The notes beneath the pieces are model-generated. The model saw nothing but the letters and a program-made list of their open reading frames with translations. It did not search any database and was not told the origin of the DNA. This document shows positions 1 through 16,793 of a stretch of 18,490 nt of DNA, piece after piece. The stretch is from the IMG/VR virus record IMGVR_UViG_3300045256_000127. One strand, written 5' to 3'. The stretch is from a virus. Taxonomy: Duplodnaviria; Heunggongvirae; Uroviricota; Caudoviricetes. The number at the start of each line of letters is the position of its first letter. The first letter of the stretch is position 1. Made by a program: the position numbers and the translations under genes.

Positions 1-2
1 TT

Positions 3-185
3 GTGAACTACCGCTTCCCTAAAGGGCAGCGGCTTCCCGTTTCACCCTCGGTCGCCTAAGTATCCAATCAAGGATGCACGGTCTTATACCAAGTCCACGG
101 GCTTTACTTCCCGCCGTTCCGGCGGTAGTTTATCCCCTTTCGGGGTATTCTGATTGCATCACCACTTGGTTTTCGTGGCGATACA
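3..185 (-). ncRNA. TnpB-type omegaRNA (reRNA) scaffold; guide would lie left of position 3, outside the window
   Basis: Minus strand reads CTACCGCCGGAACGGCGGGAAGTAAAGCCCGTGGAC..GTATAAGAC..GGAAGCCGCTGCCCTTTAGGGAAGCGGTAGTTCAC, matching the typical tnpB 3'/right-end pattern as I recall it. Stems: 158-165/175-182 (G.U pair on minus), CCCC-GAAA-GGGG (145-134), 111-115/121-125, 62-65/72-75, 11-32. The 5' boundary is approximate. Confidence 0.65.
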
Positions 186-365
186 AGATAATAGAGTCAG
201 TTGCACCAGTTTTATTCCCACGAAAGTAGGATTTATTTTGCTTCGATCTCCAGTGCATCGCCTTCATCCCCTACCCTAAAGGGCTGGTAGGCAGTCTCCC
301 TCGCTCCGCTCGGTCGCTTTGCCTACCAGCATCTACGATGTAGGGGCTTTCGGCTCCGAAGAACG
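3..365 (-). mobile_element. Non-autonomous IS200/IS605-family element (both ends present, no tnpA/tnpB)
   Basis: Minus strand. Left end: target TTAC (366-369), guide AAAG (350-347, i.e. +16..+19 as in IS608), then hairpin CCCCTAC...GTAGGGG (346-340/274-268). Right end: guide GAAG (36-33), hairpin CCGCT-GCCC-TTTA-GGG-A-AGCGG (32-11), terminal TCAC (6-3). Both guide/cleavage tetramer pairs obey the IS608 TnpA pairing rule (guide 1:site 2, 2:1, 4:4). No transposase ORF inside. Confidence 0.85.
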
Positions 366-378
366 GTAAAGTTGGTTT

Positions 379-1398
379 CTACTGCCGCTCGTGGAGGGAT
401 TGATTGATACCCTCCATCTGCTCCTGGGTGCGGCGGGCGGCGTTCAACTGGCGGTCCAGGTTCTCCCGCAGCCGGTCCATGTCGCTGTTGTTAGCCTTCG
501 CCCGCAGCGAGCGGATGCCGGACACGATCTCACCCATGTGATCGACGGCCTTGCCCACATCCTCGATGATCTTGTCCCGGTCGGCCTGGGCCAAGTCTTT
601 CGCCTTCCCACGCAGGTTCCGGGACGTTTCCCAGATGTTGAAGGCGTCTTCGAGTTTCTTAACGACCAGATTGAAGAGTTCCTTAATCTGATCGACCGTC
701 TGCGGTGTGCAGTATTCCGACAGCTTTCCGGCCTCGTAGTCGGCCATGAAGGCGTCGTACAACTCCCGCATGTCCCGGAGGTAGGTCTGGTCCCTCGGGT
801 CACGGTCACGGCACAGCTTCTCGTCCAGTTCGTCGAGCTTCTGCTTCGTGGCTTCCTTCGTCTCAAGCTCGATGGTCTTGGCGGCGTTCTGGACGACCTT
901 CTCAAGATTCAGTGCAAAGTTAGTCCCGGCCCAACCCAGGCCGACCAGCACACCCAAGAACCCCAGGAACGTCATCACCGCCCCGCCGCCGAATGCCCAC
1001 GACAGGAGCAGCATGGTAATGCCGATGGTGGTCGAGCCGACCGTCAGCGGCGTCACAAACAAGTCGAGTATCGCCTTCTTGCGGATGCTGTCCATAGTTG
1101 GCTTCGCTTTCGGCTGGGCGGTGTATGGTTCTCCCGGCCTCAACTTCGGGCGAGGCGGGCGTGGCTTCGGTGGTTCTGGGTCAAACCCCGGTATCCCTTG
1201 AAACAGCCGGTCTTTCAGAATCCCGTCAATCGGCAACGGGGGCGGAAGATCGGGCAGTTTCTTCTTCGGCGTGGGCTTCTTCTTTGGAACGATGGGGCGG
1301 ACTTCCACCCCATCGAGAGAACTCTTCTTGGCTTTCTTTCCGTAGTAGGCCGGGGTGTTCGGTTTCTTCCCCGGCCTGTTTCCCTTCCGTGGCGGCAT
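379..1398 (-). CDS. Hypothetical membrane protein: Lys/Pro-rich N-terminus, two TM helices, helical/coiled-coil C-terminus (XpaC-like architecture possible)
   Basis: 339-aa ORF with GAGG RBS, last gene of a tightly packed minus-strand run. Hydrophobic LFVTPLTVGSTTIGITMLLLSWAFGG and VMTFLGFLGVLVGLGWAG, followed by a charged helical region. Confidence 0.8.
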   Translation of the reverse strand: MPPRKGNRPGKKPNTPAYYGKKAKKSSLDGVEVRPIVPKKKPTPKKKLPDLPPPLPIDGILKDRLFQGIPGFDPEPPKPRPPRPKLRPGEPYTAQPKAKPTMDSIRKKAILDLFVTPLTVGSTTIGITMLLLSWAFGGGAVMTFLGFLGVLVGLGWAGTNFALNLEKVVQNAAKTIELETKEATKQKLDELDEKLCRDRDPRDQTYLRDMRELYDAFMADYEAGKLSEYCTPQTVDQIKELFNLVVKKLEDAFNIWETSRNLRGKAKDLAQADRDKIIEDVGKAVDHMGEIVSGIRSLRAKANNSDMDRLRENLDRQLNAARRTQEQMEGINQSLHERQ

Positions 1399-1405
1399 AT
1401 AATCC

Positions 1406-2956
1406 TCAGTACGGCAGTTGTCCCACGATGAAGGCCACCGTCATAGAGCCATTCGGCTCGGACACATCGGCCTTAACACGATTCCGGTCGATCCCGTGCC
1501 CCACCAGCCAGTCCACGGCGGATTGCGCCCGCTGAGCCGCCAGTGCCTTGTTCGCCTCGATGTCGCCCTCCTTGCTGCAATGCCCCCGGACGATCAGGTA
1601 GTATTGCGGCCAGGACTTCATCGTGTTGACCAGATCGGCAAGGGTCTGCTCGCTCGCCGTCGTCAACGTCGCCCCGCCCCGTGCGAACACCAAGCGAGGG
1701 ACTTGCAGTGTACCAACCGGGATCAGTTCCTTCCACTGCTTCTCGTTCAGGGCGACCAGTGCCTTGTCCTGCCGAACCTCTTCCGGCTGCACACCGGGGT
1801 GGAAGTTCTTGTCAAAAAGGCCACGGATCGTCTTGTCGTAGTAAAGGCGGTTGGGCTGCCCGCCGGTCGGGTCACGCTCCATCGCCCCGGTCTTGATGAG
1901 GACGCCGTTCAGGTTGACGATCATGTCCTCAATGTGCTGGTAGCCGGTCCCCTGAGTCAGCCCGAAGTGGGCATAGTTCTCCTGGGTGTTCTTCCACCGG
2001 ATGCCGTCCGCCACCCGCTTCGCAGACGCTTGGCTGATCGGCTCGCCGGTGAGCTTGGAGTCGTTGAACACCAACTCCTCACGGTTCGTCAGGGTGAAGT
2101 TCGCCCGGAAGTAGCTCTCCACCGTCTGCCGCACCACGTCCTCGTTCTTGATGAGGAAGTCACGGCTCACCACCAGCACGTCCACGACGTACCCCCGGAA
2201 CCGGCTGCTGTCGATCAGCACCTTGTAGTCGGGGTTGTCCAACATCTTCGAGACGTAAGGTTCCCAGAGTACGAACGCCTTCTTCTCGCCCGGTCGGGAC
2301 TTCCGGTACTCCTCGTAGACCGCCTTCGCCCCGTTGACCTTCACGAACTGGCTCGCTTTGAGGCGGTCCAGGTTGAAGTTCGCCATCAGCACCCGAGTCA
2401 GCGTCTCACTCGGACTATCCCCGGTCATGACGAACCGCATCTCCGGGTCGTTGAGGGCGTCCACGTTCGGGATCGAGCGGTAAGCGACCAGGGCGTCCGC
2501 CCCCTTCGTCTCGTCGATCAGTGAAACCACGACGGCCGGGATGTCCCCCAACTCCGCACTGCTCTTAATCAATGCGTCGAGAGTGAACACCGCCATCTGC
2601 GTCTCGCCACTCTTCAGCGAGGCGAGCCGCTTCGGGTAGTCCGCCTGATCGTCCACGAGATCACACTTGATCCCTCGGGACGATAGTTCGTTACGGAACT
2701 CGTCGGTGCGGAGTACGGCGTACCCGCTGAACGAGTCGATGCCCATCTTGAACTTGATCTTGTAGTGGGCTTCCGAACTCGTGTCGTCCAGTTGCTTTTG
2801 CTTGGCCTTCGCCTCCTCCTCGGCCTGCTGTGCCGCCTTGCGAGGGACGAAAATCCATCGGTAGCCCATCACCCCAATAGCCAGGATGACGAGCCACACG
2901 ACGGCGACGATCACCATCCGTGCCTTGCCCATGCCGTTGTCTTGCGCCATGTTCAT
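1406..2956 (-). CDS. Membrane-anchored NMT1/THI5-like substrate-binding protein fused to a C-terminal OmpA-like domain
   Basis: N-terminal TM (VIVAVVWLVILAIGVMGY). PBP-like DSFSGY, DETKGADALV, AFVLWEPYVSK, YVVDVLVVSRDF. OmpA-C motif IVRGHCSKEG..ANKALAAQRAQSAVDWLVGHGIDRNRV. Start abuts the upstream stop (TAAATG). Confidence 0.85.
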   Translation of the reverse strand: MNMAQDNGMGKARMVIVAVVWLVILAIGVMGYRWIFVPRKAAQQAEEEAKAKQKQLDDTSSEAHYKIKFKMGIDSFSGYAVLRTDEFRNELSSRGIKCDLVDDQADYPKRLASLKSGETQMAVFTLDALIKSSAELGDIPAVVVSLIDETKGADALVAYRSIPNVDALNDPEMRFVMTGDSPSETLTRVLMANFNLDRLKASQFVKVNGAKAVYEEYRKSRPGEKKAFVLWEPYVSKMLDNPDYKVLIDSSRFRGYVVDVLVVSRDFLIKNEDVVRQTVESYFRANFTLTNREELVFNDSKLTGEPISQASAKRVADGIRWKNTQENYAHFGLTQGTGYQHIEDMIVNLNGVLIKTGAMERDPTGGQPNRLYYDKTIRGLFDKNFHPGVQPEEVRQDKALVALNEKQWKELIPVGTLQVPRLVFARGGATLTTASEQTLADLVNTMKSWPQYYLIVRGHCSKEGDIEANKALAAQRAQSAVDWLVGHGIDRNRVKADVSEPNGSMTVAFIVGQLPY

Positions 2957-3838
2957 TTACCTCCGGGAAGACCCAGCGGCGACGACAACGACGATGACGA
3001 GGAAGACCACGACCCCGATACACACCCAGCCCCAGGTCGGAAGTCCGCCGCCACCCGTGTTAGCCTTCGCTACCTCGGTCGGGTTTACAGTGCCGCTCTT
3101 GTCCAGTGTACCGTCTTCCTTCACGGTGTAAACCGTGACCGGCTCGCCGATGGGCGTGTCCGGCGGCGACGTGAGGGCGGTGATGATGTGCCCGCTCAGC
3201 TTCGGGTCGAGTGGGGCGATCATGCGGAAGTCCTCGTCCGACACGGCACTGTTGCCGCCGCCCACTTCGGCGACCGAGGCGTTGACGGCTTGCTTCAGCG
3301 ACTCCGGGTCGTTGGCCCGCATGTACACCTTGCTGCTCTTGGCGAGGGCGTGGTCGTCCTTCATCCCGACGCCGATGGTTTCGATCACGATCCCACGGGC
3401 CTTGACGTGGACGATGTTCTCAGCCAGGAGGTTGCCGTCGGTTGCTTCGCCGTCGGTGGCGATGACGAGCTTGAACGTGCCCAGCCCCTTGTCACGCTTG
3501 CGGGCTTCGATCAGTGCATCCGCTGCGTCCTTGACGTACTTGCCCAGCGGGGTGCCGCCGCTCGCTCGGGTGGCACGGATCGCTTGCTTCAGCGACTCCT
3601 TGTTGACCGGGCCGAGGTTGGCGATCCAGCCGTTGAACGTGATGATCCCGATGTGCGTGTTCGGGCCGACCCGATCCACGACGCCGCAGAGGGCGTCCTG
3701 AGCGGCCTTCATCTTCGAGACGCTGCCCAGCCGCTCGTCCATCGACCCGCTCGTGTCCAGTAGCACCACCACGTTGTCGGCGGCGAAGGACGGCGAGGCG
3801 AGGAAGAGTAATGCGAACGCTGCCAGTAGCTTCTTCAT
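2957..3838 (-). CDS. Exported vWA (MIDAS) domain protein with C-terminal membrane anchor
   Basis: Start moved to MKKLLAAF (ATG 3838, GGAG upstream). Signal-peptide-like N-terminus. MIDAS residues DTSGSM, GTPLG, ATDGEA. Tail GGGGLPTWGWVCIGVVVFLVIVVVVAAGSSRR. Confidence 0.88.
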   Translation of the reverse strand: MKKLLAAFALLFLASPSFAADNVVVLLDTSGSMDERLGSVSKMKAAQDALCGVVDRVGPNTHIGIITFNGWIANLGPVNKESLKQAIRATRASGGTPLGKYVKDAADALIEARKRDKGLGTFKLVIATDGEATDGNLLAENIVHVKARGIVIETIGVGMKDDHALAKSSKVYMRANDPESLKQAVNASVAEVGGGNSAVSDEDFRMIAPLDPKLSGHIITALTSPPDTPIGEPVTVYTVKEDGTLDKSGTVNPTEVAKANTGGGGLPTWGWVCIGVVVFLVIVVVVAAGSSRR

Positions 3839-3870
3839 GTTATGGAACTCCGGGAGTGTGTACATGGAAA

Positions 3871-3893
3871 GGGCGGGGCAATAGACCCCGCCC
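3871..3893 (-). terminator. Intergenic 8-bp GC hairpin (weak terminator or mRNA stabiliser)
   Basis: GGGCGGGG (3871-3878) pairs with CCCCGCCC (3886-3893). Only TTT follows on the minus strand. Confidence 0.4.
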
Positions 3894-3907
3894 CCACAGA
3901 GAACGGC

Positions 3908-5767
3908 TTAGTAGTCGAAGTCCTTCGGCTTGATCGCCTCCGGGTTGACCCGGACCAGCCGGAACTCCACCCGCATGTTACGCTTCGCCTCGTCCATGTT
4001 GGACGGCTTGGCGACCAGCGGCTCCCGGATGCCCATGCCCACCGGGACGATCTGGCTCGGGTCCAGGTTCAGCCCGTTCTTCTTGGCGTACTCGATGATC
4101 GACTTCTTCACTTCCTCGGCACGGGTCTGGCTCAGGTTCAGAGCCGCCTGCATCGTCTCCTGGGGGTTCGGGTCGGAACCCTGGAAGTCCCCGGCGGCGA
4201 TGTGCTTCATCACGTCGTTCGTGGCCGTCAGGTCGAGCGCCTTCCCGTTCAGCTTGTAACTGTACGGGGTGCCCTTGCCGTCGCCCTCACGGGTGATGAT
4301 CCCCTTGCTCATCCCGGCCTTGATGAAATCGACCAACGTCTTCGTCGGGTCGGCGTGGCCCCGGATCACGATTGCCGCCTTGCCGAACGTCTGCGTGCCC
4401 TGGACGACCCGCTTGAACTCCGCACCGTACACGTCGATGGAGAACTTCTCCTGGTTCGGCTCGAAGTTGATGGCGAAGCTCACGAGCGTCCGGTCGTCGA
4501 GGTTCTGGTTCGGGAAGGCGTCGATGCCCTCGGCCTTGAACCCACCCCCGGCGAACTTCGGCTCCTCGTAGGTCAACCCGGCCATCCCGGACAGCTTCCG
4601 CCAGTCGAACCCGGACTTGTCGTAGCCGAACCGCTCCTTCGCCGCACCCAGCGTCACCGCCAGATCGAGGCCGGACTTCAGCTTGGCGTCGAACCCGTTC
4701 AGGTTGCCCGGATCGTTGAAGTACACGATGTTCCCAGGTAGGCCGACGAAGCTGGCGTCACTGACCAGCCCGTGAGCGTCCACTTCCAGTGTCGGCAGCA
4801 CCTTCTCACCGTACACGCCCTGGGCCATCTTCAGGAGGTTCATGTACTCGGGCGACTTGCCCTTGCCGTCGTTGTAGGCATTCTTCCAGGCGACCAGTTG
4901 GCTCGTCGCCTTCAGGTAGCCCGCAGTGAACTTCTCGCACCAGTCCCGGTTGTTCTTGAAGAAGTCCGACCGGACCATGTACACGTCGGCGACCGACCGG
5001 CTCATCTGGGCGGTGGACACGACGACGTGCGCACCCTTGACGGTCCCCTCGGCACCGCTCCCCTTCTTATCCAACCCGCCCGTCAGGCCGAGCATGTCGG
5101 GGCTGATGACGCACACGCAGTCGATGCTGGCGTCCTTCTTGAATAACTCGCCGGGGCTGTCCTCGCCGGTCAGGTTCTTCGTCCAGACCACGTTGATGTC
5201 GGTCCACTTCAGCCCGCCCGCCCGGAGGGCGTCGTCGAGCAAGCCGACGTGCGGCCCGCCCTGCTGGAGAGCGAACTTCTTCCCCTTGAACTCGTTGATC
5301 GTGTGGACCGCCTCACGGGCAACAACGTGGTCGCCCGCACTCCACGTCAACTGGAACAGCATGACCGGCTTGGTGGCCGGGTCGCTGCCCAGAACGTCCG
5401 AGGCCAGGGCGATCTGGGCCGTCGTACCCCGGATGACCGGAGTCTTCCCGCCCATGTAGTCCCGGACCTGCTGGACGAAGTTGTCTCCGTTGACCATCTT
5501 CAGCTTCAGCCCGGCTTGGCCGTAGATGGACTTCGGGTCGGTCGAGCCGCCCCCGCCGTTGGCGAGGAAGGTCGCCACGTCGCCACCCCAGGTCAGGTAC
5601 GGAACCGGCATCTCAGCCGCAGCCTCAACCGGCTTGACCTGCACCTGCCCGACGGTCTGGCTGAAGTGCGGAACGGTCGGGGCCGCAGGCGGCTGGGCCG
5701 ACATCGGGGACGAAATCATCCCCACCACGGCGGCTAACAGCACGCCGAAGGCACAGAGCTTCTTCAT
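3908..5767 (-). CDS. Secreted NMT1/THI5/SsuA-like substrate-binding protein fused to a C-terminal OmpA-like domain
   Basis: Signal peptide MKKLCAFGVLLAAVVGMISSPMSAQ with GGAG RBS. PBP-like QLTWSAGDHVVAR, KGKKFALQQGGPH, VADVYMVRSDF. OmpA-like VIRGHADPT...LNLSQTRAEEV...VGMGIREP...NMRVEF. Confidence 0.85.
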   Translation of the reverse strand: MKKLCAFGVLLAAVVGMISSPMSAQPPAAPTVPHFSQTVGQVQVKPVEAAAEMPVPYLTWGGDVATFLANGGGGSTDPKSIYGQAGLKLKMVNGDNFVQQVRDYMGGKTPVIRGTTAQIALASDVLGSDPATKPVMLFQLTWSAGDHVVAREAVHTINEFKGKKFALQQGGPHVGLLDDALRAGGLKWTDINVVWTKNLTGEDSPGELFKKDASIDCVCVISPDMLGLTGGLDKKGSGAEGTVKGAHVVVSTAQMSRSVADVYMVRSDFFKNNRDWCEKFTAGYLKATSQLVAWKNAYNDGKGKSPEYMNLLKMAQGVYGEKVLPTLEVDAHGLVSDASFVGLPGNIVYFNDPGNLNGFDAKLKSGLDLAVTLGAAKERFGYDKSGFDWRKLSGMAGLTYEEPKFAGGGFKAEGIDAFPNQNLDDRTLVSFAINFEPNQEKFSIDVYGAEFKRVVQGTQTFGKAAIVIRGHADPTKTLVDFIKAGMSKGIITREGDGKGTPYSYKLNGKALDLTATNDVMKHIAAGDFQGSDPNPQETMQAALNLSQTRAEEVKKSIIEYAKKNGLNLDPSQIVPVGMGIREPLVAKPSNMDEAKRNMRVEFRLVRVNPEAIKPKDFDY

Positions 5768-5823
5768 GTACTCTCCAGGTTAAAGGACGGGGACAGGTTG
5801 ACTTCAGTGAAGCCGACCCCGGC

Positions 5824-6381
5824 TCACATGTCCGGGGCGGCAAGAACGTCCTCGACGGTGATGTCCGGCACCCACCGCCACAACATCCGCTCCAACGCCC
5901 ACGCCGGGACGTTGTGCGACTCTTCCGACTTCTTCGCCAGGAACAGGGCGAACTCCTTCAGCTTCGCCTTGTTCTCCCGCTTGTTCCGTAACAGCGGGGC
6001 GTGTTCCAACCACCACGGCGAAGTCGGTTCCTCGAACCGCACGGTGTAACCCTGCGGCACGGCGTACTGAACATACGCCTTCGGTTCCGACGGCGTGGTG
6101 TTCGTGTTGTCGATGATGATGAGCGGGTGCCCCTCCTCGATCAACTTCTGTGCCCGAACCTGATTCCACTTGTGGGCGAACCCAACGTGGTTCGGGCGGA
6201 ACGAATACTTCGCCGGTTGCTCGGGTTCCACGAGCTTGTAGAAGTATTCGTCGGTGGACAGCACCGCCCCGACCGTACCGGCGATCTCCTTCGCCCGGTA
6301 CGACTTCCCGGAAGAAGGCAGGCCACGCATGATGACCAGTTCCTTCACCGCCGGGGTTTCGAGTTCCGTTACACCGTCCAT
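5824..6381 (-). CDS. P-loop kinase, AAA_33 / N4BP2-like polynucleotide-kinase family
   Basis: Walker A IMRGLPSSGKS, then STDEYF, AHKWNQ, IIIDNTNT, HNVP...LERM, the motif series typical of N4BP2-like kinases. Confidence 0.85.
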   Translation of the reverse strand: MDGVTELETPAVKELVIMRGLPSSGKSYRAKEIAGTVGAVLSTDEYFYKLVEPEQPAKYSFRPNHVGFAHKWNQVRAQKLIEEGHPLIIIDNTNTTPSEPKAYVQYAVPQGYTVRFEEPTSPWWLEHAPLLRNKRENKAKLKEFALFLAKKSEESHNVPAWALERMLWRWVPDITVEDVLAAPDM

Positions 6382-6384
6382 GTG

Positions 6385-6561
6385 TTATCCCTTCCCACGC
6401 ACCTTGTCGTGGATGAAGTCCTTCCCACTGTAGAAGGACGTGATGAGGGCGACCGTCCCGAGGACGTAGTAGCCGTGGTAGTAGAGAACGACGCACAGGG
6501 TCATCTGCGGCCAGACCAGGATGCCGAGCAGCAGAAGCACCCACCCAAATAAACTGACCAT
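6385..6561 (-). CDS. Small hydrophobic membrane protein (58 aa)
   Basis: 3' part of track ORF 6385-6951. ATG at 6561 has an AGGAG RBS. MVSLFGWVLLLLGILVWPQMTLCVVLYYHGYYVLGTVALITSF is largely hydrophobic. Confidence 0.7.
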   Translation of the reverse strand: MVSLFGWVLLLLGILVWPQMTLCVVLYYHGYYVLGTVALITSFYSGKDFIHDKVRGKG

Positions 6562-6586
6562 GCTGTTTCTCCTATTTTGCAGATGG

Positions 6587-6615
6587 AGTATACAGCATGG
6601 TCTTCGTTTTGTATA
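6587..6615 (-). promoter_or_regulatory. Candidate sigma70-type promoter
   Basis: Minus strand TATACA-N17-TATACT in the intergenic gap upstream of the 58-aa gene. Confidence 0.35.
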
Positions 6616-6631
6616 GCGGGTTATTTTGGGC

Positions 6632-7357
6632 TTAAACCATCGCCAAGCCACCCGGCGGCTGCTTCGGCATCGGCCCGCCCGGACTCTGTAGCGGGGCGGT
6701 CGGATCGGCGTTCGGGTCAGGCGTCCCGGCCCCGGCCGGAGGTTGTGGCATCGGGGCAGCTTGCGCCATTTGTGCTGCCGCATTAGGATCAGCACCGGCG
6801 GCTGCGGTAGGGTCTTGACCCGCTGGAGCGGCAGCAGGTTCGCCTCCCTGTGGCGGGGCGGTCGCATCTTGAGGAGCGTTCGTATCTTGCGTAGGTTGCT
6901 GCGGCTCGACTTTGGCGGCGACCTTCCACCGCTTTTCCCCGTAGGTGTCAAGGGCGTCCTTACCGAACATCCGTTGCAGGAGTTGTCCTACCGTGTCCTT
7001 CGGTCCGACCTTCTGGTCATTTCCGACTTTCGACAGGTATTGCATGGTTTGGTCGGCCTGCGTGCCCAGGGCTGGGTCGCCGAGAGCCTTCATACCCTGG
7101 AACACGGGTTGGAGTTTCTTCAGTACAACGTTCGGCCCCTTGCCCTGCGGCGGGGAGTCCGGCCCGGCGTCGTCGTCGGCGATGTCCGACAGGTTCAAGT
7201 GCGTCTGATCCTTCGCCGCACCGAGAAGGAGCTTCACGGTCTGGTCGTAAAGACGCTGAATTTTGGCCTGAACCTCCCGCCGCTTCGGTTGGGGTGCCTG
7301 TGCATCATCTTGTTCCATAAGCCGTTTCATCAACAGCCAGTTCTTAAACACGCTCAT
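6632..7357 (-). CDS. Hypothetical protein with Pro/Ala/Gln-rich low-complexity C-terminus (possible virion-internal protein)
   Basis: 241-aa ORF. N-terminus MSVFKNWLLMKRLME. Repeated DPTA/DPNA units. TTAAATA lies 6 nt before the ATG, with no SD. Confidence 0.75.
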   Translation of the reverse strand: MSVFKNWLLMKRLMEQDDAQAPQPKRREVQAKIQRLYDQTVKLLLGAAKDQTHLNLSDIADDDAGPDSPPQGKGPNVVLKKLQPVFQGMKALGDPALGTQADQTMQYLSKVGNDQKVGPKDTVGQLLQRMFGKDALDTYGEKRWKVAAKVEPQQPTQDTNAPQDATAPPQGGEPAAAPAGQDPTAAAGADPNAAAQMAQAAPMPQPPAGAGTPDPNADPTAPLQSPGGPMPKQPPGGLAMV

Positions 7358-7363
7358 AGAATG

Positions 7364-7419
7364 TATTTAACAAGTAATCCACGCTTTTGATAAACAAAAT
7401 CATATTCTCTGGCTAAATA
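7364..7419. promoter_or_regulatory. Divergent pair of T4-late-like promoter motifs: TTAAATA (minus, 7370-7364) and CTAAATA (plus, 7413-7419)
   Basis: AT-rich intergenic gap between divergent starts at 7357 and 7435. Both motifs resemble the T4 late consensus TATAAATA. Confidence 0.5.
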
Positions 7420-7434
7420 TGATCGAGGTTAATC

Positions 7435-7989
7435 ATGGGCAGACCAGCACTACCACCAAAAGAGAAGGCAAGACGCAATAAAGAACAACGCCAAAAACGA
7501 CTAGCCGAGCAGCACAAGCGGCTTGAGGCTGGTCTTTGTCGGCAATGTGGCGAGCCTCGATCTGACAAGTCGCAAGTATTCTGCGACAAGCATTTGGCTC
7601 GACATCGAGAAACATGTCGTGGTTATGCAAGCAATGAAGACCCGAATACTGCAAAATACCGCAGGCTAAAAAGCTCGGCACAGCAACGAAGCATAACCGT
7701 AGATTTTGATAAAGAAGAATTCATGGCATGGTTCGAGGGTGAGCAGAAGCAGTGTCATTACTGCGGAATCGAAGAACACCGCCTACACCAACACCATGAC
7801 CCTAAACAAAGAAGATTGACTGTAGATCGAAAGGATAGTAAACGGCACTACTGTGTGAACAACATCTGCTTGGCTTGCTTCCGATGCAACAACATGAAAA
7901 GCAACTTCTTCACTTCGGAAGAGTGGATGGGCATTGCACTAAATATCATCAGGCCGAGGCTTGCCGAATACCATAACCTCGGAGAGTGA
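7435..7989 (+). CDS. HNH (His-Me finger) endonuclease-like protein with N-terminal Zn finger; probable free-standing homing endonuclease
   Basis: CRQCG..FCDKH, CHYCG, LTVDRKDSKRHYCVNNICLACFRCNNMKS. GC counted as 27/60 at 7441-7500 versus 38/60 at 8041-8100. Confidence 0.8.
   Translation: MGRPALPPKEKARRNKEQRQKRLAEQHKRLEAGLCRQCGEPRSDKSQVFCDKHLARHRETCRGYASNEDPNTAKYRRLKSSAQQRSITVDFDKEEFMAWFEGEQKQCHYCGIEEHRLHQHHDPKQRRLTVDRKDSKRHYCVNNICLACFRCNNMKSNFFTSEEWMGIALNIIRPRLAEYHNLGE
7939..7945 (+). promoter_or_regulatory. CTAAATA late-promoter-like motif inside the HNH 3' end, upstream of the next gene
   Basis: Same heptamer as 7413-7419, 46 nt before ATG 7992. Confidence 0.35.
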
Positions 7990-7991
7990 CT

Positions 7992-8774
7992 ATGCGACGT
8001 AAAATCCGATTCAAAGAGTTCTTCGAGGCGACCGACATCTTCGGGTTCGAGGACAAGACCGTGCCCGACCAACCGGAAACCCCGGAGACGCCGGTCAATA
8101 CGTTCAGCGTCGGCACCATGATGGACTACCTGTCTAAGTGGAAGATCGGGGCCAAGACGCCGCACGTCAAGTTCATGAACGAAATCCGCTGGGGTCAGAA
8201 CTTCGGGGCGGTCCGGCTCGTCGTCTCCCCCAAGATGGCCTTCATGGTACAGAAGCTCGGCAAGGATTTGGAAGGCCAGGACGCCTGGATCACCAAGAAG
8301 CGGTTCCAACTGAACCGGACCGGCTACGGCGGGTTCGAGGAAGCCGTTGCGTCCGAAATCTTCGATGTCATCAAGGAACTCAGTGAAGGCGGCGTGGACT
8401 CGGCTAAGAAGGAAGTCGAGCGGCTGGACCGGCTTACGGAACGCATCTCCATGAAGATGCAGAAGGTGGCTCAGAACAAGTTCATCTACGAGGGCATCAA
8501 GAAGATCAGCGACAACGAGTACCAGATCGTGTTCGCAGTGAACTCCTACGGCCTCGAAGCCCCGAGCCAGCGGCGGGTGGAACAGCACATCACCCAAGTC
8601 AAGTTCGACCCGGAAGTGGGTTTGATTAAGTGCAGCGACTTCAAAATCGAGTCGCCGACCGGCGGGCCGCACGAGTGGCGAATCATGCCTGCGGACCTGG
8701 AAGTCAACTTCTCCCCGGCCCAGGACCGGGAAGAGATTGAGGAAGTGATCGCCGTTCACTTCAAGTATTTCTAA
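7992..8774 (+). CDS. Hypothetical phage protein (260 aa)
   Basis: GGAG (7981-7984) precedes ATG 7992. Strong GC3 codon bias. N-terminus MRRKIRFKEFFEA. Confidence 0.8.
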   Translation: MRRKIRFKEFFEATDIFGFEDKTVPDQPETPETPVNTFSVGTMMDYLSKWKIGAKTPHVKFMNEIRWGQNFGAVRLVVSPKMAFMVQKLGKDLEGQDAWITKKRFQLNRTGYGGFEEAVASEIFDVIKELSEGGVDSAKKEVERLDRLTERISMKMQKVAQNKFIYEGIKKISDNEYQIVFAVNSYGLEAPSQRRVEQHITQVKFDPEVGLIKCSDFKIESPTGGPHEWRIMPADLEVNFSPAQDREEIEEVIAVHFKYF

Positions 8775-9082
8775 GAGACGACCTGACCCTCGTCCTTCTT
8801 CGGGGGCCAGCCGCCCACGATCACGTCGCCCCAGATCATGTCCCGGATGCCTTTGAGTTCGCCGATGACGTTGAACCCGAGCATCTGTTCGGGGTTCTTC
8901 TTATCGATCTCCTCCAGCGTCTCCAGGGCTTGATTCAGTTGGAACGCCAGCCATGCGGCATTGTCGCCCCGGATGAAGAGGCCGGGCCAGTCCTCGTACC
9001 CGTCCTTCATATTAAACTGGACGGCTCCCGTTTCCACCCGTTCGTCTGTGTCGAGTTGTAGAACTCGTACCTTCTGCGGCAT
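8771..9082 (-). CDS. Hypothetical protein (103 aa)
   Basis: AGGAG RBS. PRVETG..DWPGLFIRGDNA-like phage orphan pattern. Stop overlaps the convergent gene's stop. Confidence 0.75.
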   Translation of the reverse strand: MPQKVRVLQLDTDERVETGAVQFNMKDGYEDWPGLFIRGDNAAWLAFQLNQALETLEEIDKKNPEQMLGFNVIGELKGIRDMIWGDVIVGGWPPKKDEGQVVS

Positions 9083-9090
9083 TGCTTCTC

Positions 9091-9285
9091 CTAGACTAAT
9101 TGGTACTTTCGGTCCATCGTCATTCGCATGCCGTCAGTCTGCAACAGGTAGCTGAGGGCGTCGATGACCTGCCACTCCTTGACACCTGGGTCAAGGAACA
9201 ACACCTTCTGAATGACTTCCAGAGGCCGCATCGGGTTCGCCGACATCGCCTCTTTTACCTTCGAGAGAACGTAGTCATTTTTCAT
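9091..9285 (-). CDS. Small hypothetical protein (64 aa, possibly winged-helix-like)
   Basis: GGAG RBS, overlaps the end of the upstream gene, and fills the gap in the minus-strand run. Confidence 0.65.
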   Translation of the reverse strand: MKNDYVLSKVKEAMSANPMRPLEVIQKVLFLDPGVKEWQVIDALSYLLQTDGMRMTMDRKYQLV

Positions 9286-9958
9286 GCTTGAACTCCCGGT
9301 TGAAGAACTCCTGAAGGTCGGCGTTAAGGTTGGCCTGATAGACGGTTACGTCAAAGCCAACACCCTTCGCCAGCTTCTCCAGGGCGTCCATTTTCTTGAT
9401 CCACGGTGAGAGCAGCAGGTAGTAGTGGGATACCTTGCCGCTGCTCACCCAATACTTCATCTTCGGACCGTCCACCGCCTCTTTTGTCTTATCGAAGGTC
9501 GGCTCGCCGTCGAACTTCTCGAACAGGAACCGCTTCGTGCAGTCCAGTTCTTTCGTGATCTTCGGGTTGACGACCAACGGTCGGGGCGGCGTATCAGCTT
9601 CAACGTGTGTGGCCTTCTTCTCCATCAGCCGCTTCCAGACCTGATACCGCACCCACGCCTTGTCGCCACAAATGCCGTTCGGCTCGACCCTTGCGTTGTA
9701 GGTCTTGAGGACGTGCAGGTTGGCCGAGATGTAATCCTTCAGGCTGCTCTCGTCGAGCAGGCCACGGGTTTCTCGGATGAGCTTCCAGCAGTGCTTAAAA
9801 AGGTTGCACTTCCTCGGGTCGCCTTTGTCGGGTAGCTTGGCGAGGCGTTGATCTGGGAAAATTCTCTTACAAAGCTCCTCCCAGATGCAGGCGGCTCGGA
9901 ACGCCTTCGCCTCGTCGGGGGTCATGTTCCATTCGAAGATCGCCTGCATCCGTGTCAT
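9275..9958 (-). CDS. Hypothetical protein, remote resemblance to T4 gp59 helicase loader
   Basis: 227 aa. The CDS itself is well supported. Function is tentative, based on LFKHCWKL..LKDYISANL..GDKAWVRYQVW and WVSSGKVSHYYLLL. Confidence 0.7.
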   Translation of the reverse strand: MTRMQAIFEWNMTPDEAKAFRAACIWEELCKRIFPDQRLAKLPDKGDPRKCNLFKHCWKLIRETRGLLDESSLKDYISANLHVLKTYNARVEPNGICGDKAWVRYQVWKRLMEKKATHVEADTPPRPLVVNPKITKELDCTKRFLFEKFDGEPTFDKTKEAVDGPKMKYWVSSGKVSHYYLLLSPWIKKMDALEKLAKGVGFDVTVYQANLNADLQEFFNREFKHEK

Positions 9959-9961
9959 AGT

Positions 9962-10378
9962 TCACCTTACCGGATCGAAGTTCGCCGTCGTTCCGTATGA
10001 GTCCGCAAAGTCTTTGCAGACTTGGTATTTACTCTTGAGGACATTCGGGCGACCTTCGAAGTATAGTTCTTCGTTGGACTCGCCGACCCGAATGAACCCT
10101 TCATTCAGTAAAAGCCGCCTGATCTCGTGTCGAGCATCAGTGCAGGCGATTTCGTAAATGTGCCACTCGGCGTTGTGGCTGCCTTCTCTGTCGGCAAGTT
10201 CTGAGTGGTCCCTGTGCATCTCGTCGAGCTTGCTGATGATATCGCCGATCTTCGGGACTTTCTTGATGAAGTATGGGTTTTCGGACACAATTTCGATATG
10301 CTCGTAGAGTTGGCACTGGATGAACTCACCGTTCGGGCAGAGCCATCCTGCCACTTTGGCAGCCAAAGGGTCTGGCAT
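9962..10378 (-). CDS. Hypothetical phage protein (138 aa)
   Basis: AGGAGG lies 6 nt before ATG 10378. GWLCPNGEFIQC..YEH and EGFIRVG motifs are typical of phage orphans. Confidence 0.8.
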   Translation of the reverse strand: MPDPLAAKVAGWLCPNGEFIQCQLYEHIEIVSENPYFIKKVPKIGDIISKLDEMHRDHSELADREGSHNAEWHIYEIACTDARHEIRRLLLNEGFIRVGESNEELYFEGRPNVLKSKYQVCKDFADSYGTTANFDPVR

Positions 10379-10586
10379 GGGCAACCTCCTTGTTTCGGGT
10401 CTAAAGTAACACTTCTTACGGAATGCGCCAAGTCCGCTTGTTTCTCTTCAAGGATTTTGGTAGAAAGATCGATGATACAGAGCAGGTGGCTCTCTCCACC
10501 AGACACAACCGGCTTGCAGTCGCCAGGGCGTGTCTTAGAAGAAAACCTGGGATTACGAATGTTTTCGTAACACCGGCCAGTCTCCA

Positions 10587-10877
10587 ACCGGGGGACTAAG
10601 GGCTTGTCCCGACGATCAAGGTAAGCTCGTACTCCGATACCCTTAAAGCCGAAGTGCTTGTGCGATATATGCCCCGAGGGTGGTCACAAGCTAAGAGTAC
10701 AGTTAGGCGATCATCTAATAGCTGCACTGGACTTTCGTTCAGTTGTTAAATACCAACTCTCGACGCTCCGCACTTAGACAAGTGCCGGAGATAACTTCTC
10801 TACGGCTGTAGCTTTGCGCTATATCTTAAAAGAGAAGTTATATATCTGAGTTGTATTTAACACCTTCGGCCCCCGGT
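10587..10877. ncRNA. Unclassified large structured RNA candidate (or structured origin/regulatory DNA)
   Basis: Stems read by hand: 10587-10594/10870-10877; 10597-10602/10640-10645; 10648-10654/10864-10870; 10656-10662/10685-10691; 10726-10732/10737-10743; 10744-10759/10848-10862 (1 bulge); 10766-10775/10780-10790; 10791-10801/10831-10841; crossing pair 10629-10634/10695-10700. No plausible CDS. Confidence 0.6.
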
Positions 10878-10896
10878 ATGCGCCCTGCCAACAGTG

Positions 10897-11151
10897 ATGT
10901 ACATCGCTACACTATTCCAGCCGAGTCTTGAGTCAGTCGAGAACTGGATGTGTTTCGACGACGAGGAACTGGCAATCCGCAAGGCCCGACACTTCCTCTA
11001 CGATTTCAGCTACGACACCTTCATCGTGATCTACCACCCCAACGGCCAACCATCGCAGTTCGTCTTCTGGCTCGACGACACGGTTTGCCATAGTCCCGAA
11101 GCCCCCGCCTGTTTCGGCCCAAAAGTGGATTGGCGCAACGAGGGGTTTTGA
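10897..11151 (+). CDS. Small hypothetical protein, DWRxxGF C-terminal paralog 1
   Basis: 84 aa, ends KVDWRNEGF. Alternative GTG start at 10894. Confidence 0.7.
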   Translation: MYIATLFQPSLESVENWMCFDDEELAIRKARHFLYDFSYDTFIVIYHPNGQPSQFVFWLDDTVCHSPEAPACFGPKVDWRNEGF

Positions 11152-11166
11152 GTAACATCGGGACTC

Positions 11167-11433
11167 ATGTACTCCGTCCTTTTCATCTGGCCCAGCAACG
11201 ACGTTGAAGAAGAGTGTTTCCAGAAGTACGCCAATCTGGAAGACGCATTCTCCTTCGGCCACACCAAGATGCAGTCCATGCCCGGTGCGGTCATGTGCGT
11301 CATCGTCCGCCCAGGCAGACAGAGCGTGCGAATCTGGTGGGATGCCAGTCGCCTCGTCTCGAACCTGCCCGAACTAAAAGAAAGCGAGCCGAGTTTAGCG
11401 CAAAAACTTGATTGGCGCAAGTACGGTTTCTAG
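11167..11433 (+). CDS. Small hypothetical protein, DWRxxGF C-terminal paralog 2
   Basis: 88 aa, ends KLDWRKYGF. N-terminus MYSVLFIWPS parallels MYIATLFQPS. Confidence 0.72.
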   Translation: MYSVLFIWPSNDVEEECFQKYANLEDAFSFGHTKMQSMPGAVMCVIVRPGRQSVRIWWDASRLVSNLPELKESEPSLAQKLDWRKYGF

Positions 11434-11479
11434 CTAAATTCAGTTAAACCCAAACCCGCATGGATGCGAGGACATAGGC

Positions 11480-11929
11480 ATGGCTGCCTACGGCTACTTC
11501 TACCACGTCACCGATAATCCCAATTGGGCCTTCTCCGTTCGACTCTCGCCTCGGATCACGAACCGATGCGACCAGGACGAGCCGCCGGTCCCCCGCATTT
11601 GCGTCTGCCCGACCGTCGCCGGTTGCTTCATGGCGGCGTGCTACACCGAGGGCTACCGGCGAGTCTACCGCACCCGGAAGAAGGTTCACGCCGTAGAGCC
11701 GTACCGGGTTTACGACTCAAAGGTCACGGGCGAACTCTGGCTGCTCGAACCGACGGACTTCGTTCTGATTCACGACTTCACTGAAGACGACATCGAGCGG
11801 TTCCCCAGGAGCTTCAGTCATTGCAAGACTGACCGGGGGATGATTAACAGCCAGATCGCCGCCAAGAAGCGGCTGATCCAGCACTTCACGAACATCGGAC
11901 ACGAACTGCCGAGGGCACAATGGATTTGA
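11480..11929 (+). CDS. Hypothetical phage protein, possible ADP-ribosyltransferase-like fold
   Basis: GAGG RBS. Motifs FYHVT, PRICVCPTVAGC, VYDSKVTGELW. CDS solid, fold assignment tentative. Confidence 0.7.
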   Translation: MAAYGYFYHVTDNPNWAFSVRLSPRITNRCDQDEPPVPRICVCPTVAGCFMAACYTEGYRRVYRTRKKVHAVEPYRVYDSKVTGELWLLEPTDFVLIHDFTEDDIERFPRSFSHCKTDRGMINSQIAAKKRLIQHFTNIGHELPRAQWI

Positions 11930-13215
11930 TGGAATTCAGTGAAGCCCTGGGGAGAATCGGCGAGCAGTCTGCTATCTACATGTACGCCGATCCGGTCGTC
12001 CCCGACTTCACTACGGGAAACGGGTTCGACCTTCACGTTTTCGGAAGTGGAATCTCAGCCAGCACCGAGGTAAACCCCAAGACCTGCCGCAACATTGCGT
12101 CCATGCTCGACATGGCGATCACCGTCCCCGGCAAGACCCTTCTTGCCTACGACATCAAAAGTACGATCAGTTACATCCGCCATTACCTGAAGAAAGGACT
12201 CAACGTCCAGGGCAACCTGATCGACATCCGCATCGTCGAGAAGTTCATGGGCAAGGACGAGCGGCCCCCTACCTCGTTCGTGGACGCCGTGGCCCGCTCC
12301 CGTGAACTGATGAAAGACAAGTCGTGGGTGCCGCTGTTCAAGAAGCTGCATCAGCCGCTCGCCGTGGAGACGATCCCGGCGATGGAGACGGTGGCCCTGC
12401 TGGACACGGAGGCGAAGTACGCCAAGTGGGGCTGTTACGAAATCGAGGGGCAGACCAACGGGCGGCTGCGGAGCTACAAGGCGTTCGACAAGTCGTATCT
12501 GCCGCACACGCTGTCGGACGACCAGAAGCAGTTCCTCAAGCCACGGGGCGTGAGGGAGAGCTTCCTGTACTTCGACATCAAGAACTGCGAAGTGACGGTC
12601 ATGGGCTGGCTGTCGGGTGACGCCTACCTGTACGATCTAACCCACGGTGAGGCCGACGTATACGCCGCCATCTATAAGGACGTGACGGGCGACCAGTGCA
12701 ACAGCGACAAGAAGCGGGAGATGGCGAAGCTGATGTTCCTGTCGGTCATGTACGGCAGCGGGTCGAAGACGCTCTCGGAGAAGCTGAAGATCAATTTGAA
12801 GGTTGCAGAGGAGTTGGTGGCCCGTATCCACGGGCGGTTTAAGACGACATCGAACTACATGAAGGGCTTGCAGGAGCAGGCCAAAGACGGCCCGGTGACG
12901 GACAAGTTCGGGCGGAAGCGGGAGTACGAGTCCCCGTACATCGCACGCAACGCCGTGACGCAAGCTGCGGCGGCGATGGCGTGCCTAGAGAAGTTGAATG
13001 AAATCCATGCGGTGCTGAAGTCCACTCCGGCTCGGCTCTGCTTATCGGTTCACGACGGCTACTGCGTCGTTAGCCCGACGGATTACCTAAAAGACGCATA
13101 CAGTAAGATTAAGGGCGTCTTTGAGGTTGATTCTAACCTGTGTAATGGGTTAAGATTCAAAGTCGGGTACAGCGTCGGCGACACGCTCGGCACGCTGACA
13201 TCTTTCGGTTCTTAG
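11920..13215 (+). CDS. polA: Short family-A DNA polymerase with degenerate 3'-5' exonuclease region
   Basis: Motif A FLYFDIKNCEVTVMGWLSGD, motif B REMAKLMFLSVMYGSG, motif C LSVHDG, plus YEIEGQTNGRL. 431 aa, with no recognisable Exo I DxE. Confidence 0.85.
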   Translation: MDLMEFSEALGRIGEQSAIYMYADPVVPDFTTGNGFDLHVFGSGISASTEVNPKTCRNIASMLDMAITVPGKTLLAYDIKSTISYIRHYLKKGLNVQGNLIDIRIVEKFMGKDERPPTSFVDAVARSRELMKDKSWVPLFKKLHQPLAVETIPAMETVALLDTEAKYAKWGCYEIEGQTNGRLRSYKAFDKSYLPHTLSDDQKQFLKPRGVRESFLYFDIKNCEVTVMGWLSGDAYLYDLTHGEADVYAAIYKDVTGDQCNSDKKREMAKLMFLSVMYGSGSKTLSEKLKINLKVAEELVARIHGRFKTTSNYMKGLQEQAKDGPVTDKFGRKREYESPYIARNAVTQAAAAMACLEKLNEIHAVLKSTPARLCLSVHDGYCVVSPTDYLKDAYSKIKGVFEVDSNLCNGLRFKVGYSVGDTLGTLTSFGS

Positions 13216-13222
13216 GAGGACA

Positions 13223-13786
13223 ATGCAATCGATTATAAACAACTTCCCCATCAACAACGAGGAATATGCAGCCCTCGAAAAGAAGTTCGGCCTCTTGGCA
13301 CACGACCAAGCGTGGCAGCTAAAGAGGAAGAACTATAACAACAACATGACCGACGAGCAGGAGGATGTGGTACAAGAAATCCGCATTGCTATGATTCGGG
13401 CCGGGTCGTATTACAAGCGTCAGACCTACATTGAGAACTCCTTCCGTTCGCTTCGCCGCCGGGTCCGTGACCCGTTCTTGCGGGGCGTGCTGGAGGAGTT
13501 GAAGTCGTTGTGGAAGAACCGCACCCGCCACGGGGCGAACCGACAAAAATTCGGTCCGCACCAGGAGCGGATGTTGGATCGCCTCGTCCGCCGGTTCGTG
13601 CCGGAGGACCGCCAGCCGAGCCGGGAAGCCCCGCTCCAACTGGACACGAAGTTCCAGACCTACTGCAAGCAGATCACCTGGAACCACCAGAAGCTTTTGG
13701 GTAAGAAAATCACCCGAGAGAAGTCTTGGCGGACGGGTCTTGTCTCTCTAAACGACTTCGACTACTTGGCTAAGAGCGAACTGTAA
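13223..13786 (+). CDS. Hypothetical protein with sigma70 region-2-like motifs
   Basis: AGGAGG RBS. EDVVQEIRIAMIRAGSYY and KFQTYCKQITWN resemble sigma regions 2.2-2.4. No region-4 HTH is visible. Confidence 0.6.
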   Translation: MQSIINNFPINNEEYAALEKKFGLLAHDQAWQLKRKNYNNNMTDEQEDVVQEIRIAMIRAGSYYKRQTYIENSFRSLRRRVRDPFLRGVLEELKSLWKNRTRHGANRQKFGPHQERMLDRLVRRFVPEDRQPSREAPLQLDTKFQTYCKQITWNHQKLLGKKITREKSWRTGLVSLNDFDYLAKSEL

Positions 13787-13810
13787 CAACTAGGCGCACC
13801 CTTCGGCGTC

Positions 13811-13819
13811 TGGTATGAT
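13811..13819 (+). promoter_or_regulatory. Candidate extended -10 promoter (TGG-TATGAT)
   Basis: TGn+TATGAT in the intergenic gap upstream of the MazG-like and helicase genes. Confidence 0.4.
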
Positions 13820-13841
13820 CTGGGGATCAAGGAGGATACCC

Positions 13842-14141
13842 ATGCCGGTCACGAAGGAACAATTCTTTCAGATGGTGGAAGCCGAGATTAACAACGCACA
13901 GTCTCGGTTTCCCCCACTCAACTCCCTACACGAAGCCTACGCCGTCCTGCTCGAAGAAGTGGACGAAGTATTCGAGCAGATGAAGCTCAAGGAATCGAAG
14001 CGGGATCACGATCTCCTCATCAAAGAACTCGTGCAGGTCGCCTCGTGTGCCCTGCGGACGGTTCTCGACGTTGTTAACGACCCCAAGAAAGTGCCGCCCC
14101 CGCCAGAGGGGAATCTGCTGATCGAACTCGGCGTGAGATAA
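13842..14141 (+). CDS. MazG-like (all-alpha NTP pyrophosphohydrolase) protein
   Basis: AAGGAGG RBS before ATG 13842. SLHEAYAVLLEEVDEV...KELVQVASCALR contains the ExxE/EExxE acidic pattern. Confidence 0.75.
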   Translation: MPVTKEQFFQMVEAEINNAQSRFPPLNSLHEAYAVLLEEVDEVFEQMKLKESKRDHDLLIKELVQVASCALRTVLDVVNDPKKVPPPPEGNLLIELGVR

Positions 14142-14185
14142 TAGCGGCGGGTTTCGTTTAACAAGGTTAGCTAACGAGGAGACAT

Positions 14186-15670: not shown

Positions 15671-16176
15671 CGGCGATCAAAGTAGGCGACGAGGTTGTTA
15701 ACCTCGACGAGAAGAACTTGAACTTCGACGAGACGACTCTGACCACCTATCTGCAAAAGGAAGGTGGGTTCTACAACAACTTCGGCGGGTATCTGGCGAA
15801 GGCCGAGTACCTGTTACAGTACCGGGAGTTGGATCACGAGACGGAGTACGCCGACAAGTTCAAGATGTACAAGGACGAGGGCGGCAGCGACAAGCTCGCT
15901 GAAGCCAAGACGGAATCGGACCCCGATGTCATCGAGGCGAAGAAGAAGGTGATCGAGGCGAAGTACCTCGTCCGCCAACTTGTTCAGCACTTGAAGGCGT
16001 GGGACAAGAACCACGAAAACGCCCAGAGCCTCGGGCACCATCTCCGCAAGGAAATGGACAAGCTCTCGAACGAGATCAGAGCGGCTGGGTATCGCCACGA
16101 TACCCCGGACAACAACTACTCCTACGAGGATGAAGTCAACAAGATCGTGGGTGGTCGAGTTGATTCAGAAAGCTAA
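15667..16176 (+). CDS. UvsY-like recombination mediator
   Basis: Helical protein of UvsY size. LNFDETTL..YLQ..GGFY, AEAKTESDPDV and LKAWDKNHENAQSLG follow the pattern I recall for UvsY. ATGA overlap with the helicase. Confidence 0.55.
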   Translation: MTAIKVGDEVVNLDEKNLNFDETTLTTYLQKEGGFYNNFGGYLAKAEYLLQYRELDHETEYADKFKMYKDEGGSDKLAEAKTESDPDVIEAKKKVIEAKYLVRQLVQHLKAWDKNHENAQSLGHHLRKEMDKLSNEIRAAGYRHDTPDNNYSYEDEVNKIVGGRVDSES

Positions 16177-16793
16177 TGGTTGACCCCATTAACATGACTC
16201 AGTACGATCTCTCCCCGGAGAGATTGGAAGAGACGTTCTTGTTCTGCATCGGCGTGGCAGGGAAGCCAGCCCTCACCACCGCACGATTACTCGAAGACCT
16301 GCTCCGCACGGCCCACGCCCGCCGGAGCAAGACGCCCTGGATGAACCCCTTCCAGGCGTTGAAGAAGTACAAGACCGTGGAGTCGATGATCGACTTGCTC
16401 AAGGCAAGTCGGTTCGGCTGTTTCACCCTGAAGGGGCGTGGGTTCCACTTCATCGTGAACAGCGGGCTAGACCTGCGGACCTGCACCGCCGAACAGCTTT
16501 ACGAGTGCCCCGGCGTGTCCATGAAGACCGCCAAGTTCTTCGTGATGCACACCCGCCGTAACCAGGAGATTGCGTGTCTCGACACGCACGTCCTGAAGTG
16601 GTTCCGTGACCTGGGCTACGAGGACGTTCCGAAAGGCTCGCCCCAGAATCCGAAGGTCTACAGGAAGTGGGAAGATATCTTCTTGGCGGAAGCGAAGAAG
16701 CGTAACAAGGTGGCAGCCGATCTCGACTTAGAGATTTGGAACCACTATGCCGGGAACAAAATCAGTACGGAGGCACCATGCGGTACACGATGA
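16176..16793 (+). CDS. HhH DNA glycosylase/AP lyase (OGG-like)
   Basis: HhH LYECPGVSMKTAKFF with Lys, catalytic Asp in LDTHV, plus LFCI..AGK and DLDLEIW. No Fe-S Cys cluster. Confidence 0.8.
   Translation: MVDPINMTQYDLSPERLEETFLFCIGVAGKPALTTARLLEDLLRTAHARRSKTPWMNPFQALKKYKTVESMIDLLKASRFGCFTLKGRGFHFIVNSGLDLRTCTAEQLYECPGVSMKTAKFFVMHTRRNQEIACLDTHVLKWFRDLGYEDVPKGSPQNPKVYRKWEDIFLAEAKKRNKVAADLDLEIWNHYAGNKISTEAPCGTR

Follow-up and report, generated by a model that had tools for sequence, protein, structure and literature searches.

The window analysed here, an 18,490-nt stretch of Caudoviricetes DNA (IMG/VR record IMGVR_UViG_3300045256_000127), contains on its minus strand a protein-free IS605-type mini-element (PATE) of 363 nt, in which a hairpin from the tnpB coding region, Pa, is retained beside an omegaRNA scaffold (Table 1). 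This retained coding-region hairpin is what is new; protein-free PATEs with an omegaRNA have already been published, and the element as such neatly illustrates a known class. The best explanation, which we consider probable without regarding it as settled, is that the element is a selfish protein-free derivative of the IS605 family from a clade of phages of about 500 kb, moved by TnpA and homed by TnpB, with Pa serving as a cis-acting signal. That it is a mobile PATE is almost certain: it has every PATE character that could be tested.

Table 1. Features of the mini-element and its surroundings in the window, listed from the upstream gene to the right flank.
Feature	Position	Strand	Remarks
Last gene of co-oriented OmpA/vWA operon, 339 aa, no Pfam/PHROG match	379..1398	-	stop 13 nt upstream of element
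Target/TAM pentamer TTTAC, outside element; left cleavage site TTAC (369..366)	366..370	-	
Whole mini-element (PATE)	3..365	-	no ORF common to sister copies
Left end with guide AAAG (350..347, +16..+19), subterminal palindrome (346..268), variable inner stem-loop	255..365	-	
Mini-specific spacer, AT-rich, less conserved	188..254	-	
Hairpin Pa, 12-bp stem, 9-nt loop GAAAACCAA (174..166)	154..186	-	
Hairpin Pb, 4 bp, GAAA tetraloop	134..145	-	one compensatory change in L091
TnpB omegaRNA scaffold	3..136	-	covariance model 97.9 bits, pair counts, ISDra2 architecture (PMC10097598)
Scaffold stem 1	125..111	-	
GAA linker, able to pair with terminal TTC	110..108	-	pseudoknot by analogy with ISDra2
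Scaffold stem 2	101..97 with 40..36	-	
Scaffold stem 3	93..89 with 51..47	-	
Variable inner hairpin and right-end hairpin with TTTA loop	within 3..136	-	
Right end: guide GAAG (36..33), subterminal palindrome, cleavage site TCAC (6..3)	3..36	-	
First two bases (AA) of right flank, start of RNA guide	1..2	-	agree with bases after TTTAC in G000

Both ends of the element have a guide tetramer matched to a cleavage site, AAAG with TTAC on the left and GAAG with TCAC on the right. These pairs, already named in the initial annotation, were read directly from the sequence and are identical in all minis. Subterminal palindromes are found at both ends, and terminal inverted repeats are absent. The left end is 94-98% identical to the left ends of the full-length elements L001a, L002, L014 and L021, and the right end is 94% identical to the right ends of L001a and L001b. 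The spacer is closed by a TATTAT hexamer (193..188), a candidate for a weak -10-like sequence or for a relic of Ile-Ile codons. Two blocks of 13-19 nt are invariant across the minis. Compared with shuffled sequences, the minus strand folds with z = -6.9 for positions 1-380 and z = -5.3 for positions 3-190.

No transposase or nuclease gene is present in the mini-element. All RuvC catalytic codons are gone, and the DNA of the ENQV codons that precede RuvC-II persists; the lack of a RuvC motif and of tnpA had been correctly recognised from the start. The TAGTAGS-type TnpB tail, by contrast, had been taken as encoded and is homologous DNA without an open reading frame: a stop codon precedes it, and the closest tnpB genes use one or the other of two frames across it. 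A peptide product was rejected because the 45-codon open reading frame of the window is closed in the sister copies. We also rejected an IStron, as there was no Rfam group I intron match at E ≤ 1, the element ends in C and it is only 363 nt long.

Searching Rfam with the element returned no family at E ≤ 1, whereas a purpose-built covariance model (R1), constructed from 17 tnpB-linked 3' ends and zero mini-elements, matched 136..3 over its full length with 97.9 bits. Of the covariance-model check proposed in the initial annotation, the public half thus came back empty and the purpose-built half positive, and the description of the right half as an intact TnpB reRNA stands, given this full-length match and the covarying stems. 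In a comparison of two minis and five full-length ends, 99.4% of cells are paired and 9 of 22 pairs show double changes, while slid controls reach 37-48%. Between the window and the sister mini L091, 11 pairs have changed: six by compensatory substitution, four so that they still pair, and one so that it is broken. Compensatory changes occur in every scaffold stem. The stem variants of minis are also seen in full-length elements, so that recombination could have supplied some of the 'compensatory' changes. The GAA linker and the terminal TTC are present as in ISDra2; both are invariant, and the pseudoknot therefore has no covariation. By these comparative measures the omegaRNA scaffold is under structural constraint, which makes its loading by TnpB in trans plausible.

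Related jumbo phages carry sister minis of 347-349 nt, which occupy four TTTAC sites other than that of the window. Three of them (L010a, L010b/L013 and L016) are 81-84% identical to the window mini, and L091 is 74% identical. Excision in silico of L010a, L010b and L016 reopens the interrupted reading frames, which fixes both ends and demonstrates insertion into genes. Full-length elements with the same left end contain tnpB alone (L001a, L002, L005, L012), a ribbon-helix-helix gene and tnpB (L001b, L021), or tnpA and tnpB (L006, L088). The last two, which encode a PF01797 TnpA together with TnpB, have the left-end motif and the right-end type of the mini. One contig holds both the mini L016 and the tnpB element L021, the left end of which is 98% identical to that of the window, and L091 follows a tnpB element at a distance of 36 nt. 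The contigs carrying these elements, fragments of large related phages, reach 587 kb and show 40-60% protein identity to a further IMG/VR record, G000. Neither GTDB genomes nor cultured phages or plasmids gave a match to the element, the exact right end of the window is absent from IMG/VR, and a search of 54 viral records with the covariance model R2 revealed no further minis.

Several elements of this family carry additional genes. A 52-aa ribbon-helix-helix protein (PF01402), possibly an autorepressor, is encoded between the left end and tnpB (L001:7157-7312, also L007, L014, L017, L021). L088:4963-8168 and L006:1257-5847 have about 1 kb and 2.5 kb of extra genes, respectively, between tnpA and tnpB, arising from cargo capture or nested insertion; the extra genes of L006 have homologues at 57.5-60.3 kb of G000.

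TTTAC precedes all 18 distinct left ends of the family, 17 at the spacing seen in the window and one at a spacing shorter by 2 nt, and the patterns used to find these ends did not include TTTAC. G000, a record of 107 kb and about 21% completeness, which implies a phage of roughly 500 kb, is the same as positions 366-18490 of the window except for one base and departs from it exactly at TTTAC. Beyond this junction G000 has 31 bases, starting with AA like the right flank of the window. Given that AA starts the right flank of 4 of 17 family elements, this agreement is weak by itself. From the sequence, G000 probably carries the empty allele; its contig ends 31 nt past the junction, and the window flank is 2 nt long. 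The initial annotation had pointed to an empty site in relatives as informative, and here the filled and probably empty genomes have one difference over 18 kb. The probable empty allele and the restored reading frames also support insertion 3' of TTTAC with no target duplication. The empty site of L010b was not found. No mini copy, scaffold, tnpA or tnpB was detected in the G000 contigs, and at about 21% completeness the absence of helper genes from this record is uninformative. Copies with different flanks and cognate tnpA and tnpB genes with matching ends, both suggested as things to seek, thus come from the related elements described above. Taken with the probable empty allele and the tnpA-bearing relatives with the same left end, the sister copies at other TTTAC sites support the suggestion of a mobilisable mini-IS.

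The guide inferred from the G000 flank folds on itself with -4.5 kcal/mol and matches only its own empty site in G000. The bases past the junction form a hairpin with TTAC, of 10 pairs and spanning the junction, which is unique among the 113 TTTAC sites of G000. At this probable empty site (G000:C1:12-36) the hairpin is perfect on the plus strand with one G-U pair, and it is perhaps a terminator that was destroyed by the insertion.

Coverage data came from one sample, a hot-spring or mat metagenome. Contigs bridging the left junction have a depth of 10.6-12.3 and the interior of the element has a depth of 20-24, about twice that of the flank; 11-12 contigs run from the left end into other flanks. 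The doubled depth and the multiple flanks indicate many family members and probably a second copy of the window mini. We find it scarcely credible that the mini is an assembly artefact, a collapsed join of left and right ends. The window does end 2 nt past the element, and L017 and L010b share a left flank and differ in their right flank, but the internal sequence is common to independent copies from other samples and absent from full-length elements, and two runs gave contigs that span the left junction and take in the interior. The shared left flank of L017:1550-1853 and L010:4964-5312 is 6.7 kb long and 99% identical, and the left palindrome of L017 has a deletion; the mismatch on the right reflects either recombination between copies, which would swap guides, or mis-assembly.

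Judged by its sequence relationships, the element most likely moves with a borrowed TnpA and homes with a borrowed TnpB. As a first step, which is well supported, the TnpA of an autonomous element with the same ends would excise the mini as single-stranded DNA and insert it after TTTAC without duplication. Transcription, either running on from the operon upstream or starting at a weak promoter inside the element, would then produce an RNA comprising Pa, Pb, the scaffold and the right flank. By analogy with what is known of TnpB, this RNA would be loaded, and its 5' end trimmed, by an active TnpB that a full-length element supplies, either in the same phage or in one that co-infects. TnpB would cut TTTAC followed by the right-flank sequence, a combination that the empty allele alone possesses; with the filled genome as template, repair would copy the element, resulting in retention or homing.

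A possible source of the read-through is the gene at 379..1398, for which (382-1398) no identity match is on record. The element was initially described as lying about 10 nt past the TAG of the operon in the same orientation; the orientation is right, and the distance is 13 nt. No terminator-like site was found on the minus strand within positions 1-500. A sigma-70 promoter scan of the element was negative, and the TAAATA word that is enriched before G000 genes is absent from it. The operon itself (window:379-5767) encodes, in a jumbo phage, two OmpA-domain proteins, a vWA protein and a 339-aa membrane protein of no known family.

The negative promoter scan, and the lack of a detected helper in the 21%-complete G000, would also be expected if only the DNA ends mattered and the scaffold, Pa and Pb were hitch-hiking relics that yield no working guide RNA. 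The self-folding of the inferred guide points the same way, as does a mini, L079, from which Pa and the 5' arm of stem 1 are missing. We nevertheless think such a passive element unlikely, because, over 26% divergence, compensatory change has preserved stems far from the right-end hairpin and the spacer has drifted, and because of the two invariant 13-19-nt blocks. L079 belongs to a second, unrelated type of mini of about 170 nt (L079:1501-1608, or G003:18447-18554 on the minus strand), with another left end and an apparent TTTAT target; its scaffold has no 5' arm of stem 1.

The initial annotation offered a guide cassette and a mobilisable mini-IS as alternatives. In plain form both descriptions apply; a special cassette directed against competitors is not supported. 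To our knowledge, every TnpB element cuts, by default, the allele without the element; this is not a special anti-competitor system. It is very improbable that the element is a domesticated guide cassette, kept at the end of the operon as a weapon against competing phages or a means of steering a dead TnpB, even though it is intergenic, co-oriented and 13 nt after a stop codon, and an element-free relative exists. The insertion is recent and strain-specific, with one difference in 18 kb, and the inferred guide matches nothing in G000 except its own empty site. The idea of a stand-alone cassette serving the phage finds no support in the sister copies, which interrupt unrelated reading frames at unrelated sites and have unrelated guides. 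A nuclease-dead partner (TldR) was rejected as well: the 121 nearest TnpBs all have the RuvC-I Asp motif, all but one have the RuvC-III motif, and across the family the guides (right flanks) differ from site to site.

The extra 5' hairpins noticed before the scaffold are real. Pa and Pb are kept with compensatory changes in all three mini lineages that were available for comparison, and neither is formed at the 3' ends of tnpB genes. The loop of Pa is unchanged in all mini lineages. Together with its closing bases (13 nt) it matches tnpB, read in the sense direction, at the ENQV codons, which precede the RuvC-II glutamate by seven codons; the match is exact in L012, L001b and L092, and the mini L091 matches L001b at 18 of 18 positions. 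A 41-nt Pa query gave only chance matches to plasmids. In the minis, pairing of the Pa loop with the 5' strand of stem 3 is feasible, at -8 to -9 kcal/mol; as both strands are invariant, this pairing is a possibility only. The L079 type has no Pa, and thus Pa is not universal to minis. At three of five mini sites (L010a, L010b, L091), compared with 0 of 12 full-length sites, a GG complementary to the Pa loop lies just before the T-run of the target (Fisher p about 0.015, a post hoc result on small numbers).

The coding-region counterpart of Pa was analysed in 46 dereplicated tnpB genes, with expectations derived from the codon usage of each gene. The Gln codon of the ENQ motif is CAA in 27 of 27 genes (16.7 expected), which ranks second of 314 columns, and the Asn codon is AAC in 24 of 30. 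The nine ENQ bases form a hairpin loop in most tnpB genes, and covariation is seen at the closing pairs (C-G/T-A, A-T/G-C). For stem pairs 1-4 the signal exceeds permutation with p ≤ 0.002, values that are uncorrected for relatedness and therefore inflated. Pairing is 0.88 in register 0 versus 0.11-0.40 at four of five slides; sliding by +3 also scores 0.67, owing to codon periodicity. Relative to synonymous recoding, the folding z is about -1.8, and other windows range from -0.5 to +0.5. The loop is out of frame in three tnpB genes and absent from 14 of 46, and a crude pairing scan over all tnpB genes placed the ENQ window outside the top eight. In an independent set of 14 tnpB genes from cultured bacteria and phages, Gln is CAA in 10 of 10 (4.8 expected), including genes of Rhodococcus, Streptomyces and Mycobacterium that use CAA for 9-12% of Gln. 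The hairpin is kept in IS605-type genes and absent from the one IS607-linked gene checked (L128). In full-length elements, the ENQ region showed no special pairing with the element's own scaffold. We found no description of the ENQ hairpin in the literature searched, which took in few subscription journals.

In the last and least certain step of the mechanism, Pa would be a cis-acting signal, located in full-length elements within the tnpB frame some 430 nt upstream of the guide. In the mini lineage the surrounding sequence would have been deleted and Pa kept beside the scaffold; there it would most likely aid the loading, processing or stability of the RNA, or control the scaffold through base pairing. 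In its general form we put this forward tentatively, at somewhat less than an even chance: large 'ENQ'-class TnpB transposons may carry an undescribed in-frame cis-acting hairpin (9-nt loop GARAACCAA) before RuvC-II that acts in the biogenesis or regulation of the guide RNA. The minis would then be a natural minimal construct that joins this hairpin and the scaffold; it might work as a switch, with the loop paired to stem 3 as long as TnpB has not trimmed the 5' end.

Because the top strand, which transposes, is at the same time the sense strand of tnpB, G-T pairs cannot separate RNA from single-stranded DNA. Homing could proceed as proposed with Pa acting in the single-stranded top strand, in TnpA transposition or circle handling, and the retention of the hairpin in IS605-type genes and its loss in IS607-linked L128 would agree with this. 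We consider a role in DNA quite unlikely, since transposition of IS608 requires only the two ends (PMC3201880), many IS605-type tnpB genes and the mini L079 have no such hairpin, and in the minis Pa adjoins a GNRA hairpin and the scaffold. For the preferred role of Pa in RNA, a comparable case is the inhibitory region by RuvC-II in the mRNA of AmaTnpB, for which pairing with the omegaRNA has been proposed (Nety et al., PMC10278001). Pa is likewise a piece of tnpB near RuvC-II, with a loop able to pair with stem 3 of the mini. It was rejected as the same region on position and sequence: the AmaTnpB region (nt 826-875) is 3' of the catalytic Glu and has another sequence. Separately, a one-base variant of the loop occurs inside a 125-nt inhibitory fragment of AmaTnpB (PMC10278001 supplement 1), and a Mycobacterium TnpB of another clade (PMC10278001 supplement 2, ortholog 35) has the identical 9-nt loop, with a short stem, in its zinc-finger codons.

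Known minimal elements resemble the window mini in different respects. PATE-like minimal IS200/IS605 elements of Geobacillus stearothermophilus encode omegaRNAs and are proposed to depend on TnpA and TnpB acting in trans; for full elements, cleavage of the empty donor joint by TnpB is followed by repair that copies the element (Meers et al., bioRxiv 10.1101/2023.03.14.532601). The window mini also has no protein gene, two intact ends and an omegaRNA, but it resides in jumbo phages and belongs to a long-lived lineage (74-84% identity between copies) with its own spacer and with Pa and Pb before the scaffold. With the PATEs of Haloquadratum walsbyi (PMC3119063) it shares subterminal palindromes, the absence of terminal inverted repeats and target duplication, strain-specific insertion and a non-coding length; those elements, described before omegaRNAs were known, have another end family and host domain. 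Standalone omegaRNAs of OMEGA systems have been shown to work in trans (summarised in PMC10691335). They too are mobilised guide-RNA loci without effector or transposase; their description includes no coding-region hairpin such as the window mini retains, and for the mini, function in trans is predicted. The TTAC/AAAG pair of the left end is that of IS608 from Helicobacter pylori (PMC3201880), and the scaffold resembles the ISDra2 omegaRNA in its 5' stem, long central stems, terminal stem with UUUA loop and GAA/UUC pseudoknot potential (PMC10097598). Unlike IS608 and ISDra2, the window mini has a pentamer target, a GAAG/TCAC right end, a large variable insert in the left palindrome and no genes.

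With filled and probably empty phage genomes, helpers and sister copies in hand, homing of a protein-free guide between phages can now be tested. Our understanding of how TnpB recognises its guide RNA, trims it and controls it is incomplete. The ENQ hairpin provides a direct and cheap handle on this question: its nucleotides are fixed in tnpB genes ranging from those of actinobacteria to those of jumbo phages, and a natural series of deletions has picked it out. Codon-optimised tnpB genes erase this hairpin, which bears on genome-editing practice.

The strongest synonymous bias of all columns is elsewhere in the gene: at codon 218 of P0001 (tnpB), Lys is AAG in 26 of 32 genes (11.6 expected), possibly a second signal at the nucleotide level. 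Two fragments of lake jumbo phages, G001 and G003, are dense in the IS family of the window element, with 4-5 scaffold matches in 24-55 kb, and the insertions interrupt genes that resemble, by similarity only, those for a nuclease, a thymidylate synthase and a peptidase.
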